DNA of 64,000 nucleotides from Deltaproteobacteria bacterium (GTDB taxonomy: Bacteria > Myxococcota_A > UBA9160 > JAJDAL01), in NCBI GenBank assembly GCA_029261875.1, contig JAJDAL010000006.1:120765-184764 (forward strand). Direction: 5' to 3'. The notes under the pieces were generated by a model. That model was not told the DNA's origin, made no database searches, and saw only the letters and a program-made list of their open reading frames with translations. The position numbers were made by a program, and so were the translations under genes. Below, in pieces: positions 15,460 to 52,548 of the stretch (the stretch's first letter is position 1; each line of letters opens with the position of its first letter).

Positions 15460-15488
15460 GGGCCCGCCGGCAGCGTGCCAGCGGGCCC
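15460..15488. terminator. GC-rich hairpin between convergent genes (possible bidirectional terminator)
   Basis: GGGCCCGCCGGC-agcgt-GCCAGCGGGCCC forms 11 bp plus 1 mismatch. Followed on the plus strand by CTATTTCTCAAT. Confidence 0.45.
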
Positions 15489-15511: not shown

Positions 15512-15739
15512 CTAAAGGTCTACGCCCTTCAGGGTCTTGCGCTTGTTACCGATCGCTCGCTGCTCGGCGCCAGCGATGAGCTTGCGCACGACCTCGTCGA
15601 GGGCTCCGTAGAACTCCCCGCCGACGTTGCACTTGCGCACAGCCGCCTTGGTCCGAGACTTCGAAATGATCAGATCGCCCGTCGCCTTCTTGCTGCGTCG
15701 TGCGGCCTTCTTCTTCGCCTTCTTCTTTCTTGCTGCCAT
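15512..15739 (-). CDS. Bacterial histone-fold protein (HBb/DUF1931-like) with Lys/Arg-rich N-terminal tail
   Basis: ORF 15512..15829 trimmed to ATG 15739, preceded by GGGGAGAGAGAA (RBS). 75 aa: MAARKKKAKKKAARRSKKATG-DLIISKSRTKAAVRKCNVGGEFYGALDEVVRKLIAGAEQRAIGNKRKTLKGVDL. The core aligns by eye with Bdellovibrio histone Bd0055 (sequence recalled from memory), including the ...GRKT-x-x-x-x-D-hydrophobic end. Confidence 0.75.
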   Translation of the reverse strand: MAARKKKAKKKAARRSKKATGDLIISKSRTKAAVRKCNVGGEFYGALDEVVRKLIAGAEQRAIGNKRKTLKGVDL

Positions 15740-15768
15740 TTCTCTCTCCCCTACGCCGCGTGGCGTAA

Positions 15769-15786
15769 ATTCCGTTGCAACGGAAT
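15769..15786. promoter_or_regulatory. Perfect 18-nt palindrome in the leader of the histone-fold gene
   Basis: ATTCCGTTGCAACGGAAT is its own reverse complement and lies 30-47 nt upstream of the start codon. A second hairpin, GTTCGC-ctcat-GCGAAC, lies at 15795-15811. Confidence 0.4.
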
Positions 15787-15844
15787 CCCAGTGTGTTCGC
15801 CTCATGCGAACGCTGCATGTGATCACCACAGTGCAACGGCCGCG

Positions 15845-15872
15845 ATCATAAGCATTCCCCCGTCGGAGTCAA
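15845..15872 (-). promoter_or_regulatory. Putative sigma70-type promoter of the histone-fold gene
   Basis: The minus strand reads TTGACT (15872-15867), N16, TATGAT (15850-15845). Each hexamer matches consensus at 5 of 6 positions, about 100 nt upstream of the ATG. This is unusual in such GC-rich DNA. Confidence 0.45.
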
Positions 15873-16849: not shown

Positions 16850-18256
16850 ATGGCCGACCCCCTTCACACACCGCTCACCGAACTCACCGCGTCTCTGCAC
16901 GCTGGAGACATTTCTCCCGTTGACCTGATGGAGCACACCCTGGCGCGCATCGGTTCGGCCGACGAGAAGCTCAATTCGTTCTGTGTCGTTCGCGACGGGG
17001 AGGCGCTGCTCGACGAAGCGCGCGCGGCGGCCGAGCGTATCGCGCGCGGCGAAGGCCGCGTGCTCGAAGGCATTCCCGTAGGCGTCAAAGATCTCGAAGA
17101 CGCCCACGGGCTCACCACCAGTCAGGGCTCGATTCCCTTCAAAGACCAGGTGGCAGAGCGGGATTCGATCCAGGTGGAGCGCTTGCGCGAAGCGGGCGCC
17201 ATCGTCGTGGGCAAGACCAACGCTCCGGAGTTCGGCTACACCGCGATCACCAAGAACCTCGTCTACGGCGCAACCTCGAGTCCCTGGAATCTGGAGCGAT
17301 CCCCCGGCGGTTCGAGCGGAGGTTCTTCGGCCGCCATCGCGGGTGGACTCGTCCCCTTGGCGACCGCCAGTGACGGCGGCGGTTCCGTACGCTTGCCCGC
17401 CTCCTTTACCGGCTGCTTCGGACTGAAGCCCAGTTGGGGTCGCATCCCCAACGGTCCCCGGAAGCAATGGGTCATGGACGACACCGCGGTACAGGGTCCG
17501 CTCACGCGCACGGTGGAAGACGCAGCGCTCCACCTCGACGTGGTGGTGGGCGTCCATCCTTTGGATCCGAATTCGCTTCCGCACCCCGGGCTCTCCTACC
17601 GGGAAACCCTGCGCGAAAAACTCCCGCGCTTGCGCATCGGCTATTCGCCGGACCTGGGCTATGCGGTCGTGCAGCGCGATGTGGCCGAGGTGGCGGAGAA
17701 GGCCGCGCGGGTTTTCGAAGAACTCGGCCACGAGGTGGAATTCCTGAAGGGCGGCCCGCCGGAACCGGGACTCGACTGGGGCACCCTCGGCGCCTTCGAG
17801 CTGGCTTCGAAGCTCGACCATCTACTCCCGGAACACGAACCGGAATTCGGGCGAACGTTCCTTCGCGGCGTCAAGCACGGCTACACGATGACGCCCGCCC
17901 GCTGGGCCGCAGGCAACAAGCGCCGCGAAGAACTCAATCGCTGGTGCGCGGAGATCTTCTCCCAGTACGATTTCCTCCTGACACCGACCGCTCCCTTCGA
18001 CCCGCCGCCGACACGCGGCCCCTTCCCGAGTGAAATCGACGGCCGCAAGGTGCCGTTCTCGAGCGCCGGTGGGTTCACCATGCCCTTCAATCTCGCCTGG
18101 CACCCCGCCGCGACCGTGCGCGCGGGCTTGTCCGAAGCCGAACTTCCGGTGGGATTGCAGATCGTCGGACCGCGACATCGCGACGACCTGGTGATGCGCG
18201 CCGCCTACACGTTCGAGCAAGCGCGTCCCTGGCATCCCCATTGGCCCGTGATCTGA
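16850..18256 (+). CDS. Amidase (amidase-signature family)
   Basis: 468 aa. AS-family core GGSSGGSSAAIAGG and GKTNAPEFG. Confidence 0.9.
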   Translation: MADPLHTPLTELTASLHAGDISPVDLMEHTLARIGSADEKLNSFCVVRDGEALLDEARAAAERIARGEGRVLEGIPVGVKDLEDAHGLTTSQGSIPFKDQVAERDSIQVERLREAGAIVVGKTNAPEFGYTAITKNLVYGATSSPWNLERSPGGSSGGSSAAIAGGLVPLATASDGGGSVRLPASFTGCFGLKPSWGRIPNGPRKQWVMDDTAVQGPLTRTVEDAALHLDVVVGVHPLDPNSLPHPGLSYRETLREKLPRLRIGYSPDLGYAVVQRDVAEVAEKAARVFEELGHEVEFLKGGPPEPGLDWGTLGAFELASKLDHLLPEHEPEFGRTFLRGVKHGYTMTPARWAAGNKRREELNRWCAEIFSQYDFLLTPTAPFDPPPTRGPFPSEIDGRKVPFSSAGGFTMPFNLAWHPAATVRAGLSEAELPVGLQIVGPRHRDDLVMRAAYTFEQARPWHPHWPVI

Positions 18257-18634
18257 GCCACTAGGCTTCGCGGGTTTTCGCGAGGCGCTTTCCCAATTTG
18301 CGCCGTCGAAGATCTGGACTTCGAGCGCCCCGAGATCGATCCCTTCGATGCAGCGCGCGTTGACGTCGATCTTGTCCGGGTCCGAGCGCGGTACGTAGAA
18401 CGGCGAAACTCCACAAACCGGGCAAAAATGGTGTTGCGCCACGCCGGTGTTGAACGTGTAGGTCGCGATCTCCTCCATGGGTGTCAGGATGCGCACACGT
18501 TCCTTGGGCACGATCCAGTGCAGGTATCCCTTTTGGCGACAAATCGAACAATTGCATTCCAGGACGCGGGTGACTTCGCCGTCCACTTCGCAGCGGATGC
18601 GGCCGCAGTGACAGCGCGCGCGTTGGACATTCAT
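17822..18634 (-). CDS. GFA/CENP-V family zinc protein; the ORF has no stop at the expected position and reads through antisense to the amidase
   Basis: ATG 18634 overlaps the Sir2 stop (ATGA). The first ~125 aa are GFA-like: MNVQRARCHCGRIRCEV...CNCSICRQKGYLHW...HHFCPVCGVSPFY...FDGANWE. Only 18260-18634 is supported by similarity. The remaining 435 nt are antisense to the amidase 3' end. Confidence 0.55.
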   Translation of the reverse strand: MNVQRARCHCGRIRCEVDGEVTRVLECNCSICRQKGYLHWIVPKERVRILTPMEEIATYTFNTGVAQHHFCPVCGVSPFYVPRSDPDKIDVNARCIEGIDLGALEVQIFDGANWESASRKPAKPSGSDHGPMGMPGTRLLERVGGAHHQVVAMSRSDDLQSHRKFGFGQARAHGRGGVPGEIEGHGEPTGARERHLAAVDFTREGAACRRRVEGSGRCQEEIVLGEDLRAPAIEFFAALVACGPAGGRHRVAVLDAAKERSPEFRFVFRE

Positions 18635-19383
18635 GCTTCGACCACTTTCCGAACGAGTCTCGGGAGCAACTCTTCCACGGGTTCTTCGAACTTGTAATCC
18701 GCCATGGCGTCGTACGGGGTTTCCGATGCGGTCAAGATCGCCGTCCTGGCCCCCGCGCGCGCGGCGACGTCGAACATGCCGTTGATGGGACCCACCACCA
18801 GGGAGGTCCCCACCGCGACGAACAAATCGCAGCGCGCGGCGCACTGCATGGCCCGCTCGAGATCCTCCGCGACCAGGCTCTGGCCGAAAGAGATCGTGGC
18901 CGGTTTCCATGGGCCCCCACACGCACAACTTGGAACCGCCGTGCCGGCTTCGAACAGACGCTGTGCCACTTCGCGGGGTTCTCGGGCACCGCAATCCATG
19001 CACACGACCGCCGCATCGCTGCCGTGGATGTTTACGAGCCGCACGGGATCGAGGCCACTGCGCTCGTGCAATCCATCGACGTTCTGGGTCACCAACAGGT
19101 CGAGACGATTCGCGCCGGCGAGTTCCGCCAGGGCCCGGTGGGCTGCATTGGGTTTCGCGTTGCGGATCCGATCCCAGGTCTCCCCCTTGTAGCGCCAATA
19201 TTCCTCGCGCGCGGGTGCGCTGGCCAGGAAGTCTTGGATGGGAACGGGCTGATAGCGTTCCCAGCGTCCGCCCGGCGAGCGGAAGTCGGGAATCCCCGAC
19301 GCAGTGGAGAGGCCTGCTCCCGTCAGGACCACCGCGCTCTTGGCCGCGCGCCAATCCCGCGCGAGTTCGTCCAGGGCTTGCAT
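18631..19383 (-). CDS. cobB: NAD-dependent protein deacylase (Sir2/CobB family)
   Basis: ORF 18631..20415 trimmed to MQALDEL (ATG 19383). Motifs GAGLSTASGIPDFRS and QNVDGLH, with zinc cysteines CMDCG...CACGG. Confidence 0.9.
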   Translation of the reverse strand: MQALDELARDWRAAKSAVVLTGAGLSTASGIPDFRSPGGRWERYQPVPIQDFLASAPAREEYWRYKGETWDRIRNAKPNAAHRALAELAGANRLDLLVTQNVDGLHERSGLDPVRLVNIHGSDAAVVCMDCGAREPREVAQRLFEAGTAVPSCACGGPWKPATISFGQSLVAEDLERAMQCAARCDLFVAVGTSLVVGPINGMFDVAARAGARTAILTASETPYDAMADYKFEEPVEELLPRLVRKVVEA

Positions 19384-27979: not shown

Positions 27980-30900
27980 ATGAGCGAGGCCATTTTCAAC
28001 CGACTCCTCCCCGCACTGCGACGTGGCGAACGCCGTCGCGCCGCGTTCTTCGTGACGCTGCTCGGCTTGGTGAGCCTGGCCCAGACCCTCGGGCTGGCGG
28101 GCTCCGAGGCGCTCTTCCTGGCGCGTGTCGGCATCGAGTTCTTACCCGGAGCACTCGTGTTCGCCGCCGGGGTGACGGTCCTGGGATCCCTCGCCTACGC
28201 GGCGGTAGTCGGGCGCGCGCGCAACGACCGCTTGTTCATCGTCTTGCTGCTTGCCGTCGCACTGGCATTGGCGGCCCTGACCGCCCTCTCGCTCCAGGGA
28301 CTCGATGCCGCCCCCTGGCTCCTGTTCGCCGTCTACTGGATCGGGCAGGCGATCTTCCTCAATCACTTCTGGACCTTCGCCGCCGACTATTTCGACACCC
28401 TGTCGAGCAAGCGCTTGTTCCCGCTGTTCGTCGTCGGTTCGAGTATCGGCGGCCTCCTGGGCGGCGTGCTCACGATCGCTTTCGCCCGAGCCGCCCCCCC
28501 CGAGAGCTTGATCGCCGCCTGGTCGGCGTTTCTCGTCCTCGGCGCGTTGCTGATCTTTCTCGCGCGTTGGCGCTTGCGCACCTGGGGCTCGAGCACCCTC
28601 GAGGAGTCGGACGAAAGTTCCGTCGAGGGCCTGCGCGGGGCCGTGCGCTTTCTGCGACGCTCTCCCCTCGGACGCTGGCTCGCCATCTCTTCGTTCGGCA
28701 TGGTGATCTCGCTGTTCGTCGTCCAGTACCTGTACTCGGGGATCTTCGCGGAAGCCTTTTCCGACGCTTCGGAGTTGGCCTTCTTTTTCGGCGTCTACCT
28801 GACCCTCAGCAACCTGGTGGAAGTCGTATTCGCCACCCTCGTCACGCCTTGGTTGATCCACCGCGTCGGTGTCGCGAGCGCGAACCTCGTGCACCCGCTG
28901 CTCACGATCGCCACCTGCGTCGCCGTCGCTTGGGACCCGCGTTTGTGGGTCGGCATTCTCGCGCGCGCCAATCGCGAGTTGCTCGACAACGCGATGAGCA
29001 TCCCCTTGCGCAATCTCGTCTACAACGCGCTTCCGCTCGGCATCCGGGGCAGGATTCGCGCGTTCCTCGAAGGCATCGTCGTGTACTCGGGAATGGTGGT
29101 GGCCGGTGTCGGCTTGTTGTTGTTGAGCGGAATCGTTTCACACCTGGGTCTGTGTATCGCGGGGGGTGCCGCAGCGTTGCTCTACCTTCTCGCCAACCTG
29201 CGCGTGCGACGCGAATACCTCAAATCCCTGGTCGGGGGCATGCGCGAGGGACGTCTCGACCTTTCGGAATTTGCGGCCGAACTCGGACATTGGGAAGTCT
29301 CTCAGATGTCCGCCCTGTGGCGGTCCATGTTGGGAGAGAGTTCCCAGCGCACGCGAGGCTCCGTCGTGCAACTCGCCACCGCCATGGCAAACGCGGGCGT
29401 CGCCGCTCCCCTGGTCAAGGGACTCCAACACGCCGATGAAAACGTGCGAAAGGCCTGCGTGGACGCGCTGGCGATCGTCGATACCGGCGCGGTCGAGGCC
29501 GCCCTCGTGCAAGCCCTCGAAGACGAGCGCGGCCTGGTGCGAAGATCCGCGGTTGCGGCCCTGGCTGCGCGTTCCGAGAAGCGCGCGCGCGTCGCTGCGG
29601 CGATTCGCTTGCGACTTTTCGATCCCGACCCCGCAACCCGTGCCGAGGCCGCGGCCGTTCTCGGTCCCGAGGGTTTCGAAGTCTTCAAGGAAATGGTCTG
29701 GTCCGAAGATCGCATTGCGGCGCGGGCGGCCTTCACCCGCATGCCACGCGCCCTGCTTTGGTTGGCGCTGCAACGCGTGGACGACGGGGATGCGCGCGTT
29801 CGCGCCGAAGCCTTGCGCTGCGTGACGCGACTTTCTTCGCCGGTCCCCCTGGACCCGGGTCGCTTGGCGGAGGACCTGAAGAACCCCAGTACGGACGTCC
29901 GGGCCGCCGCCGCCGACGCCCTCGCCACCCTCGAAGACGACTCCGCCTCCCTCGCCCTGGCGGGCTGCCTCGCGGATATCTCTCCGGAAGTCCGGCGCCA
30001 CGCGGTCGCGGCTTTGGGTCAATGCGGCGACCGGGCCGTCGCGGCCATCAGCCGCCATATGCACAACGAATCCGTGGCGACGTGCGAAGCGGCCCTCGAC
30101 GCGCTGGCGTTGATCCGCACCTCTGCGTCGCGAAAAGCCGTGCTCGGGTTCCTCTCGCAACAAGCCCGTCACGCGTGGGTGCACGTCTTCGCCATCCAAG
30201 TGTTGTCGAAGCAGAACAACATCAAGCGGCGCTTCCTGCGGGCGGCGATTCAGGATGCGCTGGCGCGCAACTGGAAGCTCGCCTTTCACGCGCTCTCGGT
30301 TCTCGAAGGCGCGAGCGTGGTCCGCAGTCTCGAACGAGCGCTTCGATTTTCGTCGTCGCGGTCCCGCGGCGACGCTTTGGAAGTTCTTTCGCACCTGGGC
30401 GATCGCGATGCGGCCCGGCTCCTGGTGCTGATGGCCGAGTACGGAACGATCGAAGACAAGATTCCCACGGCCCGGAACCACGTCCCCTATCCCCGCAGTG
30501 AAGACCAGGTTCTCGAAGAGGCCCGGCAGTCCGAATATCGATGGATTCGCACGTCCGCTGTCGCGATCGACAGCGGTTCCCACGAATCCCACGAGGAGAA
30601 GCTCATGGAACGCCTGCTGATTTTGCGCCAGGTACCGCTTTTCGCGGGACTCTCCCTCGAACAGCTCGAAGCGATCGGCGGCATCATGACCGAGACCTTG
30701 CGGGTGCGGGGCGACGTCGTAGTTCAGGAAGGCGACGTTGGCACCAAACTCTACGTATTGGTGAGAGGCGAGGTCGAAATCTTGCGAAACCTGGGAACCC
30801 CCCAGGAGGTACACCTCGGCAACCAGCAAGCCATCAGCTATTTCGGAGAAATGGCGATTCTCGACAATGAACCCCGCAGCGCCTCCGTGCGCGTCAAGCG

Positions 30901-31072
30901 AGACGTTCGCCTGCTGGTGCTGGACGGCGATCGCCTCAAGGAATTGATTCACCAGATGCCGGAGATCGCTTTCGAAATCCTGCGCGTGCTCGCGCGGCGC
31001 GTGCGCGAAGGGCACGAAAGACTCGAGCAACACGTCAAAGCCAGCGCCGCAGCCGGCGGGAAATCCGCCTGA
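27980..31072 (+). CDS. Fusion protein: ATP/ADP-translocase-like (Npt1/MFS-type) membrane domain, HEAT repeats and a cyclic-nucleotide-binding domain
   Basis: 1030 aa. About 400 aa of multi-TM N-terminus (FFVTLLGLVSLAQTLGLAGSEALFLARVG...). PBS-lyase/HEAT repeats (DENVRKACVDALA, DERGLVRRSAVAALA, DPATRAEAAAVLG, SPEVRRHAVAALG). C-terminal cNMP domain (LRQVPLFAGLSLEQLEAI...YFGEMAILDNEPRSASV). Confidence 0.85.
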   Translation: MSEAIFNRLLPALRRGERRRAAFFVTLLGLVSLAQTLGLAGSEALFLARVGIEFLPGALVFAAGVTVLGSLAYAAVVGRARNDRLFIVLLLAVALALAALTALSLQGLDAAPWLLFAVYWIGQAIFLNHFWTFAADYFDTLSSKRLFPLFVVGSSIGGLLGGVLTIAFARAAPPESLIAAWSAFLVLGALLIFLARWRLRTWGSSTLEESDESSVEGLRGAVRFLRRSPLGRWLAISSFGMVISLFVVQYLYSGIFAEAFSDASELAFFFGVYLTLSNLVEVVFATLVTPWLIHRVGVASANLVHPLLTIATCVAVAWDPRLWVGILARANRELLDNAMSIPLRNLVYNALPLGIRGRIRAFLEGIVVYSGMVVAGVGLLLLSGIVSHLGLCIAGGAAALLYLLANLRVRREYLKSLVGGMREGRLDLSEFAAELGHWEVSQMSALWRSMLGESSQRTRGSVVQLATAMANAGVAAPLVKGLQHADENVRKACVDALAIVDTGAVEAALVQALEDERGLVRRSAVAALAARSEKRARVAAAIRLRLFDPDPATRAEAAAVLGPEGFEVFKEMVWSEDRIAARAAFTRMPRALLWLALQRVDDGDARVRAEALRCVTRLSSPVPLDPGRLAEDLKNPSTDVRAAAADALATLEDDSASLALAGCLADISPEVRRHAVAALGQCGDRAVAAISRHMHNESVATCEAALDALALIRTSASRKAVLGFLSQQARHAWVHVFAIQVLSKQNNIKRRFLRAAIQDALARNWKLAFHALSVLEGASVVRSLERALRFSSSRSRGDALEVLSHLGDRDAARLLVLMAEYGTIEDKIPTARNHVPYPRSEDQVLEEARQSEYRWIRTSAVAIDSGSHESHEEKLMERLLILRQVPLFAGLSLEQLEAIGGIMTETLRVRGDVVVQEGDVGTKLYVLVRGEVEILRNLGTPQEVHLGNQQAISYFGEMAILDNEPRSASVRVKRDVRLLVLDGDRLKELIHQMPEIAFEILRVLARRVREGHERLEQHVKASAAAGGKSA

Positions 31073-31136: not shown

Positions 31137-31610
31137 GTGATCACCGTGGCCATGGCCACGGGAATCGCCGCCCCCCCGAAACGTGTGTGGCGAGCCATCA
31201 CGGATCCCGATGAACTCGGTTCCTGGAATCCCAGTGTGCTCGAAATCATCGACGCGCCGACGGGCGCTCCCAAGATCGGCCATCGTCTGCGCTGTCGATA
31301 CTCGCTGCGGGGAATCCCCATCGTACTGTCCATTCGCACGACCGGGGTCACTCCGGGCAGGGAGCTGCGCTCGACCCTGCGCTTGGGCGCTCTGCAACTC
31401 GATCTTCGCTACTCCCTCGAACCGGAAATCGGCGACCCACCGCGTGCGCGCCTGGGCATGCGCCTGGACACGACCTCCAATGCCGCCGTGGAGGGAGAGA
31501 TCCTCGACCGCTTCGAAGTGCGCTCCCTGGCGACCCAGTTCGTCGCCACCAGCCTGGAAGGCGTGCGCAAGTGGTGCGAGCAAAAGGAAGCGCGCCTCGA
31601 CGCCTCGTAG
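31137..31610 (+). CDS. SRPBCC (START/Aha1/polyketide-cyclase-like) family protein
   Basis: 157 aa, GTG start. The N-terminus ITVAMATGIAAPPKRVWRAITDPDEL is typical of SRPBCC proteins. Confidence 0.75.
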   Translation: MITVAMATGIAAPPKRVWRAITDPDELGSWNPSVLEIIDAPTGAPKIGHRLRCRYSLRGIPIVLSIRTTGVTPGRELRSTLRLGALQLDLRYSLEPEIGDPPRARLGMRLDTTSNAAVEGEILDRFEVRSLATQFVATSLEGVRKWCEQKEARLDAS

Positions 31611-51785: not shown

Positions 51786-52490
51786 TTACTCCTGGGTTGT
51801 AGTTTCGGGCAGAGGACACCCGAGATAGCCGAGAAAGGCGCGCATCATTTCGCGAGCGAGATCCGCATCGGACAAGTGGCTGAACGCCTGGGCGAGTTCG
51901 TCGAACAAGACCGTGCGTTCGAGAGAACCGAAAATCAGGTGCAGCCCGAACTCCGTGGCGAGCACCGGGTCCGGGTGTGAAATCTGTTCGCGGCGATCGA
52001 TCAGCAGGACGGACAACTTGCCCGCCACGTAGCGGCTCAGGCGTTGTTCGCGTTGACCGAAGCTCGGATCCGAGCGGCCTTTCACCATGAAGGCGCGCAC
52101 GAGGCCCTTGCGGTCGCGAAAGGTTTGGATCAAGAACGGAATCACGGCGCCGAGAATGTCGACGGTACCGGCGCCTTCCCAGCGCTGGGGGTCGAGGGCC
52201 GCGTCGGCGGTCGCCGTGGCTTCTTCGTAATAGCGCTCGTAGAGGGTGTGGAGAAGCGTGTCCTTGTCGCCAAAACGGGAATAGAACGCGCCCACCGAGG
52301 ACTCGGCGCGTCGTACGATCTCCGCCACCGAAGCATCTTCGAAGCCCTTGTCCGCCACCAACGACTCGGCGGCATCGAGGATTCGGACCAGGGTTTCCTG
52401 GCTGCGCGCCTGACGGGGCGGCTTCACCCACTGCAAGGGAGCTCGCAGAGCGGGGGGAACGGCTTGATGGGTCTCGAACGGGTTACTCAT
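51786..52490 (-). CDS. TetR family transcriptional regulator
   Basis: 234 aa. TetR HTH ARSQETLVRILDAAESLVADKGFEDASVAEIVRRAESSVGAFYSRFGDKD. Its stop lies 3 nt before the di-iron gene start. Confidence 0.85.
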   Translation of the reverse strand: MSNPFETHQAVPPALRAPLQWVKPPRQARSQETLVRILDAAESLVADKGFEDASVAEIVRRAESSVGAFYSRFGDKDTLLHTLYERYYEEATATADAALDPQRWEGAGTVDILGAVIPFLIQTFRDRKGLVRAFMVKGRSDPSFGQREQRLSRYVAGKLSVLLIDRREQISHPDPVLATEFGLHLIFGSLERTVLFDELAQAFSHLSDADLAREMMRAFLGYLGCPLPETTTQE

Positions 52491-52501
52491 CCCGGCCTCT
52501 A

Positions 52502-52523
52502 AATTAGAATCAGTATTCTAATT
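52502..52523. promoter_or_regulatory. Perfect 9-4-9 palindrome; putative TetR operator
   Basis: AATTAGAAT-cagt-ATTCTAATT, verified base by base. It abuts the GAGG RBS and start codon of the TetR gene and overlaps the putative -10. Confidence 0.6.
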
Positions 52524-52548
52524 CTAGTTATAGCGGCCAGAATGTCAA
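52521..52548 (-). promoter_or_regulatory. Putative sigma70-type promoter of the TetR / di-iron operon
   Basis: The minus strand reads TTGACA (52548-52543), N16, TAGAAT (52526-52521). Confidence 0.5.

Follow-up and report, generated by a model that had tools for sequence, protein, structure and literature searches.

Histones have been recognised as chromatin proteins of bacteria only in 2023-2025. To our knowledge, the characterised bacterial histones are HBb (Bd0055) from Bdellovibrio bacteriovorus and HLp from Leptospira perolatii. Schwab et al. 2024 (PMC11390915) defined the α3-truncated histone fold and described face-to-face (FtF) histones, which form ring-shaped tetramers, as well as a separate class of 'bacterial dimer' histones, to which HBb belongs and which lacks R48 and N52, two interface residues in the FtF sequence logo. 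The same survey places FtF histones in Myxococcota, among other bacterial phyla, and describes bacterial FtF histones, that of Leptospira interrogans included, whose tails are positively charged; its length table spans 51-127 residues and has many entries of 64-76 residues. The tetramer residues R49, N53 and R55 of HLp are conserved among bacterial FtF histones, R55 and D62 form its RD clamp, and its DNA contacts are A13, S14, K15, K17, K21, T27, G29, T56, T57 and R59, with S14, K15, K17, K21 and R59 as the main contributors to binding (PMC12701072). Here we describe a small gene for a tailed histone in a 64-kb stretch of contig JAJDAL010000006.1 (positions 120,765 to 184,764, assembly GCA_029261875.1), from a genome labelled Deltaproteobacteria bacterium and placed in Myxococcota_A; this stretch, 63.7% GC and scanned on both strands, is the window referred to throughout. 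We consider it likely that the product is a nucleoid-associated α3-truncated histone of the FtF type, like HLp and the HTkC protein of Thermococcus.

Histone fold and class of the protein

The gene (Table 1) encodes a protein of 75 residues that, as read from the open reading frame (ORF), begins MAARKKKAKKKAARRSKKATGDLIISK and ends KTLKGVDL (full translated product, MAARKKKAKKKAARRSKKATGDLIISKSRTKAAVRKCNVGGEFYGALDEVVRKLIAGAEQRAIGNKRKTLKGVDL). The product has a mass of 8.15 kDa, an isoelectric point (pI) of 10.9 and a net charge of +17, with 23 K/R against 6 D/E. When the locus is compared with 79 homologous loci, 63% of the nucleotide differences fall in third codon positions, which supports the reading frame. 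Public data contain an identical protein (P0001) and 1818 homologous clusters at 90% identity, and we take the gene to be real. An initial annotation made from the letters of the window had proposed a histone-fold protein here. All of its observations (the ORF, ribosome-binding site, promoter, palindrome, second hairpin and Sir2 gene) are present in the sequence, and the fold is borne out by profile matches to solved histones and by a predicted structure.

Profile matches were obtained with a close-family profile of 32 close homologues (alignment A1) and with a diverse profile of 57 relatives (alignment A2), taken from the 326 hits that 1.84 billion representatives yielded when searched exhaustively. 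Based on the close-family profile, the Protein Data Bank (PDB) matches are HTkC (9F2C, E = 3.6e-6) and HLp (9QT0, E = 0.0085). Based on the diverse profile, the E-values are 1.6e-17 for HTkC, 8.1e-14 for HLp, 6.8e-12 for HBb and 1.6e-5 for HmvA, and they are marginal for NF-Y subunits, HMfA/B and H4. The AlphaFold monomer model computed from the diverse alignment has a core predicted local distance difference test score (pLDDT) of 79-92, with helices assigned by DSSP at about residues 27-33 (α1), 41-64 (α2) and a single turn at 72-74 (α3). The top Foldseek matches of this model in the PDB are all α3-truncated histones with probability 1.00: HLp (root-mean-square deviation (rmsd) 1.3 Å, template modelling score 0.84-0.85, 30% identity), HTkC (rmsd 2.0-2.3 Å, 32% identity) and HBb (rmsd 1.4-1.6 Å, 19-20% identity). 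The RD-clamp motif R-x-T-x-x-x-x-D is present as R67-K68-T69-L-K-G-V-D74; R67 and T69 do not vary in A1, where conservation of D74 is 90% or more, and T69 and D74 are invariant in A2. Profiles and model together indicate that the protein belongs to the α3-truncated histone superfamily.

Within this superfamily, HTkC and HLp outrank HBb in both profile searches. In the alignment, R49, N53 and R55 of HLp correspond to R61, N65 and R67 of the window protein, and the RD clamp to R67-D74. R61, N65 and R67 are invariant in A1, as are K31 and T69. The HLp DNA contacts align to K27, S28, R29, K31, R35, V39, G41, K68, T69 and K71, the main contributors among them to S28, R29, K31, R35 and K71, and the equivalents at S28, R29, K31, R35, K68/T69 and K71 are conserved. 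Because R61, N65 and R67 are kept and the FtF members are nearer in sequence, we read the protein as FtF-like rather than HBb-like, and as closer, judging from the alignments, to the tetrameric FtF histones than to dimeric HBb.

The initial annotation had aligned the protein with HBb, whose sequence as given there agrees with PDB entry 8FVX. The two do share a superfamily, but the nearest relatives are HTkC and HLp, at 30-32% identity compared with 19-20% for HBb. If the protein were nevertheless HBb-like, it would exist only as a dimer, bending or coating DNA and forming no tetramers, and both the common superfamily, seen in the diverse-profile match and in the close superposition of the model on HBb, and the listing of 'Myxococcota_A' with the dimer-type histones (Schwab et al. 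2024, PMC11390915) would be consistent with it. The close-family profile, however, matches HTkC and HLp and gives no match to HBb at any E ≤ 10, and HBb has S and D where R61 and N65 are invariant here. Together with the identities, these differences make an HBb-like dimer unlikely.

The DUF1931 pattern noted in the initial annotation was found in part. The terminal R67-K68-T69...D74 is there, whereas searches that the annotation had suggested with two family models gave nothing for the window protein, neither with CBFD_NFYB_HMF (PF00808; weak matches in 11 of 57 relatives, best 1.6e-4) nor with DUF1931 (PF09123), even at E ≤ 10 (weak matches in 10 of 57, best 4.2e-5). Strict membership of DUF1931 was rejected because the window protein is a 75-residue singlet, whereas true DUF1931 proteins are doublets with two histone folds. 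Public labels on the relatives are 'histone H3/H4' (JGI) and 'DUF1931 domain-containing' (NCBI).

The NCBI label would fit a histone fold with a non-architectural role, be it a specific regulator, a scaffold of the DUF1931/TAF type, or a small basic protein associated with RNA or ribosomes, and Schwab et al. 2024 (PMC11390915) caution that prokaryotic histone-fold proteins are not all genome organisers. Such a role is highly unlikely for this protein, given that it is a singlet unmatched by PF09123, that, in a strongly cationic product, conserved basic residues stand in the positions equivalent to the HLp DNA contacts, and that the consensus-like promoter described below is conserved.

Loop L1 carries a cysteine, Cys37 (K-C-N-V-G-G; window 15629-15631), that is invariant in the close family. 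A cysteine in this loop is also common among more distant relatives, as ECNVSG, and HLp, HTkC and HBb have none at the position. Cys37 could be a redox or metal site.

The basic N-terminal tail and its distribution

Ahead of the histone fold lies an extension that the initial annotation had described as a 20-residue tail with 11 K/R. Residues 1-20 do hold 11 K/R and no acidic residue, and the same counts apply to residues 1-21, which precede the fold as delimited here. The tail has a pLDDT of about 52 in the AlphaFold model, a low confidence that is consistent with disorder. We surveyed the tails of 149 distinct homologues that were recovered together with their DNA. All 149 start with MA, and 125 of them with MAA[RK][RK]K. 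Tail length ranges from 7 to 36 residues (median 15), the number of K/R per tail from 1 to 17 (median 6), and an acidic residue occurs in only one tail. The overall composition is K 35%, A 31%, G 13% and R 8%. Tails as long as the 21 residues of the window protein are found in only 4 of 149 homologues, and tails as basic (+11) in only 3.

Translation might have started downstream of the tail, a point the initial annotation had marked for checking. The homologues conserve both the start and the tail, and no in-frame ATG, GTG or TTG occurs between codon 1 and codon 34, which lies inside helix α1, so that a tailless product can be dismissed. We conclude from these comparisons that the tail is translated and conserved as a feature. 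Some database entries start MGGIM- or MGGNM-; they are gene-caller artefacts in which the GGAGG ribosome-binding site has been translated.

The tail had been called eukaryote-style. This holds in that it is a disordered, basic N-terminal extension outside the fold, as seen from composition, pLDDT and homologues. It does not hold for likeness to H3 and H4: the tail is low-complexity K/A/G/S/T/P, without acidic residues in the window's copy, has no sequence relationship to the tails of H3, H4, H2A or H2B, and the Pfam Histone model is unmatched. In its K/A/G-rich composition it is nearer to the tails of linker histones, or to AKKA-type tails of bacteria, than to those of H3 and H4.

Among more distant relatives (P0145, P0147, P0148, P0155, P0157, P0165, P0167; P0176, P0186 and P0188) are forms whose K/A/T/R-rich, linker-histone-like tails range from about 30 to nearly 50 residues, and tandem doublets of about 120 residues. 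Tailless forms of 55-56 residues also occur.

In a collection of species-representative genomes we confirmed 415 matching stretches. Nearly all matching genomes are metagenome-assembled genomes (MAGs) labelled Myxococcota, Myxococcales or Deltaproteobacteria; a few MAGs carry other labels, some of which are probably wrong. The window gene belongs to this large clade of FtF-type histones in Myxococcota, which is tightly conserved and whose members each have a basic tail with a conserved N-terminus and expression signals that look strong.

Promoter, leader and gene neighbourhood

The histone gene is monocistronic, in agreement with the initial description of a gene that stands alone, and neither a second histone copy nor an HU homologue was found within the 64-kb window. 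Its surroundings are summarised in Table 1.

Table 1 Features of the histone locus (window coordinates)
Feature	Position	Strand	Basis or remark
Histone gene, 75 codons + TAG stop	15512..15739	-	ATG at 15739, stop 15512-15514
Basic tail, codons 1-21, MAARKKKAKKKAARRSKKATG	15677..15739	-	Composition, low model confidence, homologue starts
α3-truncated histone fold (predicted), codons 22-75	15515..15676	-	Model, Foldseek, profile matches
Shine-Dalgarno GGGGAGAG	15744..15751	-	GGAG about 8 nt before ATG
5' leader, four stem-loops (predicted)	15752..15837	-	RNA fold
Leader stem-loops	15812-15837, 15795-15811, 15768-15787, 15752-15767	-	RNA fold
Perfect 18-nt palindrome ATTCCGTTGCAACGGAAT (9+9)	15769-15786	-	Inside third stem-loop
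-10 hexamer TATGAT	15845..15850	-	Promoter scan
-35 hexamer TTGACT, 16-nt spacer	15867..15872	-	Promoter scan
GC hairpin GCCTTCTAGAGGC then T-run AGTTTTTCAA	15873..15895	-	Flagged terminator-like, abuts -35 hexamer
Inverted repeat GGGCCCGC-N13-GCGGGCCC	15460..15488	.	Between convergent histone and DUF6178 genes
DUF6178 protein, 414 aa	14182..15426	+	PF19676, E = 4.4e-71; convergent, downstream of histone
Sir2-family deacylase gene	18631..19383	-	PF02146, E = 1.2e-37; ends 2.9 kb upstream of histone start

The promoter TTGACT-N16-TATGAT, singled out in the initial annotation as rare in this GC-rich DNA, matches the consensus at 10 of 12 positions and is one of only two sites with at least 10/12 on both strands of the whole window. 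At 80 homologous loci we counted its hexamers within 118 nt upstream of each ribosome-binding site, with expectations taken from flanking DNA. TATGAT occurs in 33 of 80 regions where about 0 are expected, and TTGACT in 18 of 80 where 0.2 are expected; as the loci are related, p-values for this excess are inflated. TTGAC[TAG]-16-TATGAT as a unit recurs among the loci, which points to a near-consensus sigma-70-type promoter that is recurrent at homologous loci. The GGAGAG read as a ribosome-binding site lies within the Shine-Dalgarno element, and homologous loci have GGGAGG or GGAGG at this position.

The other near-consensus promoter of the window, TTGACA-16-TAGAAT (11/12; 52490-52548, minus strand), lies upstream of a 234-residue ORF (51786-52490) that is TetR-like by eye. 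An inverted repeat, AATTAGAAT-N4-ATTCTAATT, overlaps its -10 hexamer and would suit the operator of an autoregulated repressor.

From the -10 hexamer to the start codon the distance is about 100 nt here and 42-187 nt across homologous loci. The leader of about 100 nt with a perfect 18-nt palindrome and a further hairpin, as first noted, was confirmed in both elements. The predicted leader RNA folds with a minimum free energy of -37.6 kcal/mol (z = -2.78; 2 of 200 shuffles fold as well) and leaves the Shine-Dalgarno element unpaired. Homologous leaders likewise fold better than dinucleotide shuffles (n = 38 loci; mean z = -1.84, with 47% below -2). Many homologous leaders are laid out alike, with a 5'-proximal stem-loop, an [A/T]TGGGGG run (UGGGGG in RNA), one or two further stem-loops and then the ribosome-binding site (for example L026:2861-2967, L018:2852-2958 and L041:2860-2958). 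We found the run in 50 of 150 distinct upstream regions, and the 6-mer in 23 of 80 compared with 1.8 expected. The window has a degenerate copy, CTGGGATTCCG (15787-15795), that runs into the palindrome, where L026 has TGGGGGTTTCCG. The possibility that [A/T]TGGGGG marks an alternative start of a longer protein was rejected, as it is in frame in 11 of 33 cases, the chance level.

The palindrome could in principle be a specific operator, for instance for autoregulation by the histone or for another regulator. It is perfect, it lies between the promoter and the ribosome-binding site, and no copy occurs elsewhere in the window even at 3 mismatches, where about 0.01 near-matches are expected by chance. 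Its sequence is, however, missing from all 84 other loci searched, and the leaders of homologues differ in sequence and length. RNAalifold gave no common structure, with no consensus pairs among 42 sequences upstream of the G-run and no shared block other than a G-run, and no Rfam family was found in the leader, the whole window or 12 homologous loci. We therefore regard an operator as quite unlikely and infer that the leader hairpins are generic 5' mRNA stabilisers rather than a conserved operator. Terminal stem-loops, sometimes with a Shine-Dalgarno-like element, stabilise mRNA in the ompA and cryIIIA leaders. The window has only two perfect 18-nt palindromes; the second, CCGTGGCCATGGCCACGG at 31144-31161, follows the ORF at 27980-31072 and lies at the start of the ORF at 31137-31610.

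Immediately upstream of the -35 hexamer, the GC hairpin and T-run may be an UP-element-like tract or a relic terminator of an upstream gene; in the window the upstream gene is divergent. By eye, CTAGAG or CTGGAG plus a T-run precedes the -35 hexamer in several homologous loci. Where Sir2 is directly upstream, the hairpin and T-run would be the Sir2 terminator and may double as an UP-like element. On the downstream side, the inverted repeat between the convergent genes is a possible bidirectional terminator; its T-run is too short for the terminator scan to have called it, and its U-tract on the histone strand (TTTGT) is weak.

We compared the neighbourhood at 80 homologous loci with flanks of 3 kb and, for Sir2, at 21 loci whose upstream flank is at least 3.5 kb long. 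Gene order around the histone gene is conserved. The DUF6178 gene is convergent downstream of the histone gene in 61 of 80 loci. Its product is acidic (pI 4.68, net charge about -30), with an acidic C-terminus, and literature and structure databases gave no paper and no solved structure for DUF6178. Upstream, the window has a divergent α/β-hydrolase gene; an amidase (35/80) and a hydrolase (34/80) are variably present upstream in the 80 loci. One distant long-tailed homologue whose contig was read has unrelated neighbours.

The initial annotation had pointed, as speculation, to a Sir2-type deacylase 3 kb away. Its location is as described, and linkage is found in a minority of loci (about 20-30%). 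On the same strand, Sir2 lies within 3 kb upstream in 14 of 80 loci, and it is present in 6 of the 21 loci with longer flanks. In five of those 14 (L008, L017, L041, L059 and L064) it directly adjoins the histone gene, with gaps of 240-335 nt, and elsewhere the amidase and hydrolase are variably inserted. Sir2 is absent within 10 kb in the close relative L082 despite an amidase-hydrolase-histone-DUF6178 order. A general Sir2-histone linkage was rejected on these grounds. ACT-domain and GH31 genes of the block are likewise syntenic, so that much of the linkage is plain shared ancestry. We take the Sir2 link, a possible association, as recurrent but minority synteny and carry it no further.

The recurring same-strand block Sir2-(amidase)-(hydrolase)-histone-DUF6178, with direct adjacency in at least five species-level genomes, could be cited in support of a lysine-rich tail that is reversibly acylated, with the syntenic Sir2 as eraser. 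If true, tail acylation and Sir2 would make a simple tail-based switch of bacterial chromatin, independent of eukaryotes and Asgard archaea. We hold this reading to be very improbable; no acetyltransferase was found among about 15 genes scanned (about 5.5-28 kb of the window). In a lesser reading, the neighbouring acidic DUF6178 protein, or the leader layout found at many loci, would belong to a dedicated system for expressing or handling the histone.

A GFA-domain ORF (about 18250-18634, minus strand; PF04828, E = 2.7e-13) begins directly where the Sir2 gene stops. Open down to 17822, it overlaps the end of the amidase gene in antisense, and it is omitted from the contig's public gene call; a problem of annotation or the loss of a stop codon may explain this.

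Proposed function and comparison with known histones

If the protein is a nucleoid-associated FtF histone, as we favour, then by analogy with HLp two handshake dimers would associate face to face as a ring-shaped tetramer, wrapping or bridging about 50-60 bp of DNA. The disordered 21-residue K/R/A tail (+11) would leave the fold about 5 residues before the DNA-touching N-terminus of α1 (K27-S28-R29). Four tails per tetramer would bring 44 positive charges in total, which could serve for non-specific grip, charge neutralisation, compaction or bridging, in the manner of H1-like AKKA tails. With a presumably strong promoter, an unpaired Shine-Dalgarno element and a leader that begins with stem-loops, expression would be high and stable, and such expression fits an abundant architectural protein. 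The candidate chromatin protein of the initial annotation is in this sense supported by the histone fold and the basic tail.

Several points weigh against this reading. Every relative comes from an uncultured MAG, and the protein is known from sequence alone. As a single sequence it matches no Pfam or NCBIfam model (Pfam even at E ≤ 10) and only weakly matches PDB histones, with two chains at E = 0.067 and 0.49. The first AlphaFold model, from a shallow alignment of close homologues, was poor (pLDDT 62), which was remedied by using the diverse alignment as input, and the Foldseek E-values are just about 5e-3, modest because the domain is short. The structural model is that of a monomer, and the tetramer is predicted by analogy with HLp. 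HTkC, itself a tetramer, has E at the position of N65, so that the residue signature is not absolute. The strength of the promoter and the function of the leader are likewise presumed from consensus.

Among solved structures, HLp (PDB 9QT0-2; PMC12701072) is, like the window protein, a bacterial singlet with an α3-truncated histone fold, and its R49/N53/R55, the R55-D62 clamp and the basic DNA contacts of α1 and L2 all have conserved equivalents here. The two differ in that HLp has 63 residues with about 6-7 disordered at the N-terminus, whereas the window protein has a 21-residue tail with 11 K/R, in that the core net charge counted on the aligned sequences is +6 here and about +2 in HLp, and in the invariant Cys37, which HLp does not have; HLp has been solved, whereas the window protein is a translated reading frame. 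Thermococcus kodakarensis HTkC (PDB entry 9F2C; PMC11390915) is the best profile match, at 32% identity, and shares the EFY-x-AL-D/E motif in α2 and the RKTL motif. In contrast to the window protein, it is archaeal, tailless and 59 residues long, and has E in place of N65. HBb (PDB 8FVX, 8CMP) has the truncated α3 and the RKT...D motif in common with the window protein. Unlike it, HBb is tailless, belongs to the dimer-only class and lacks the R and N tetramer residues.

Lysine- and alanine-rich tails also occur on linker histone H1 and on bacterial nucleoid proteins such as mycobacterial MDP1/Hlp. Like the window tail, these are low-complexity, and the presumed role of both is electrostatic condensation of DNA. 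The window tail is N-terminal on a histone fold, whereas the H1 and MDP1 tails sit on a winged-helix or HU fold, and no homology is claimed.

FtF histones with tails had been described from Myxococcota before, and the gene reported here leaves the general picture unchanged. Compared with the tailed FtF histones surveyed by Schwab et al., the window clade stands out in keeping the first six residues, MAA[RK][RK]K, in 125 of 149 homologues. This N-terminus, the size and tightness of the clade, the layout of promoter and leader, Cys37 and the partial synteny with Sir2 and DUF6178 are modest additions. With a tail among the longest and most charged of its clade, the window protein is a good candidate for asking what difference a tail makes to a bacterial histone that forms tetramers.

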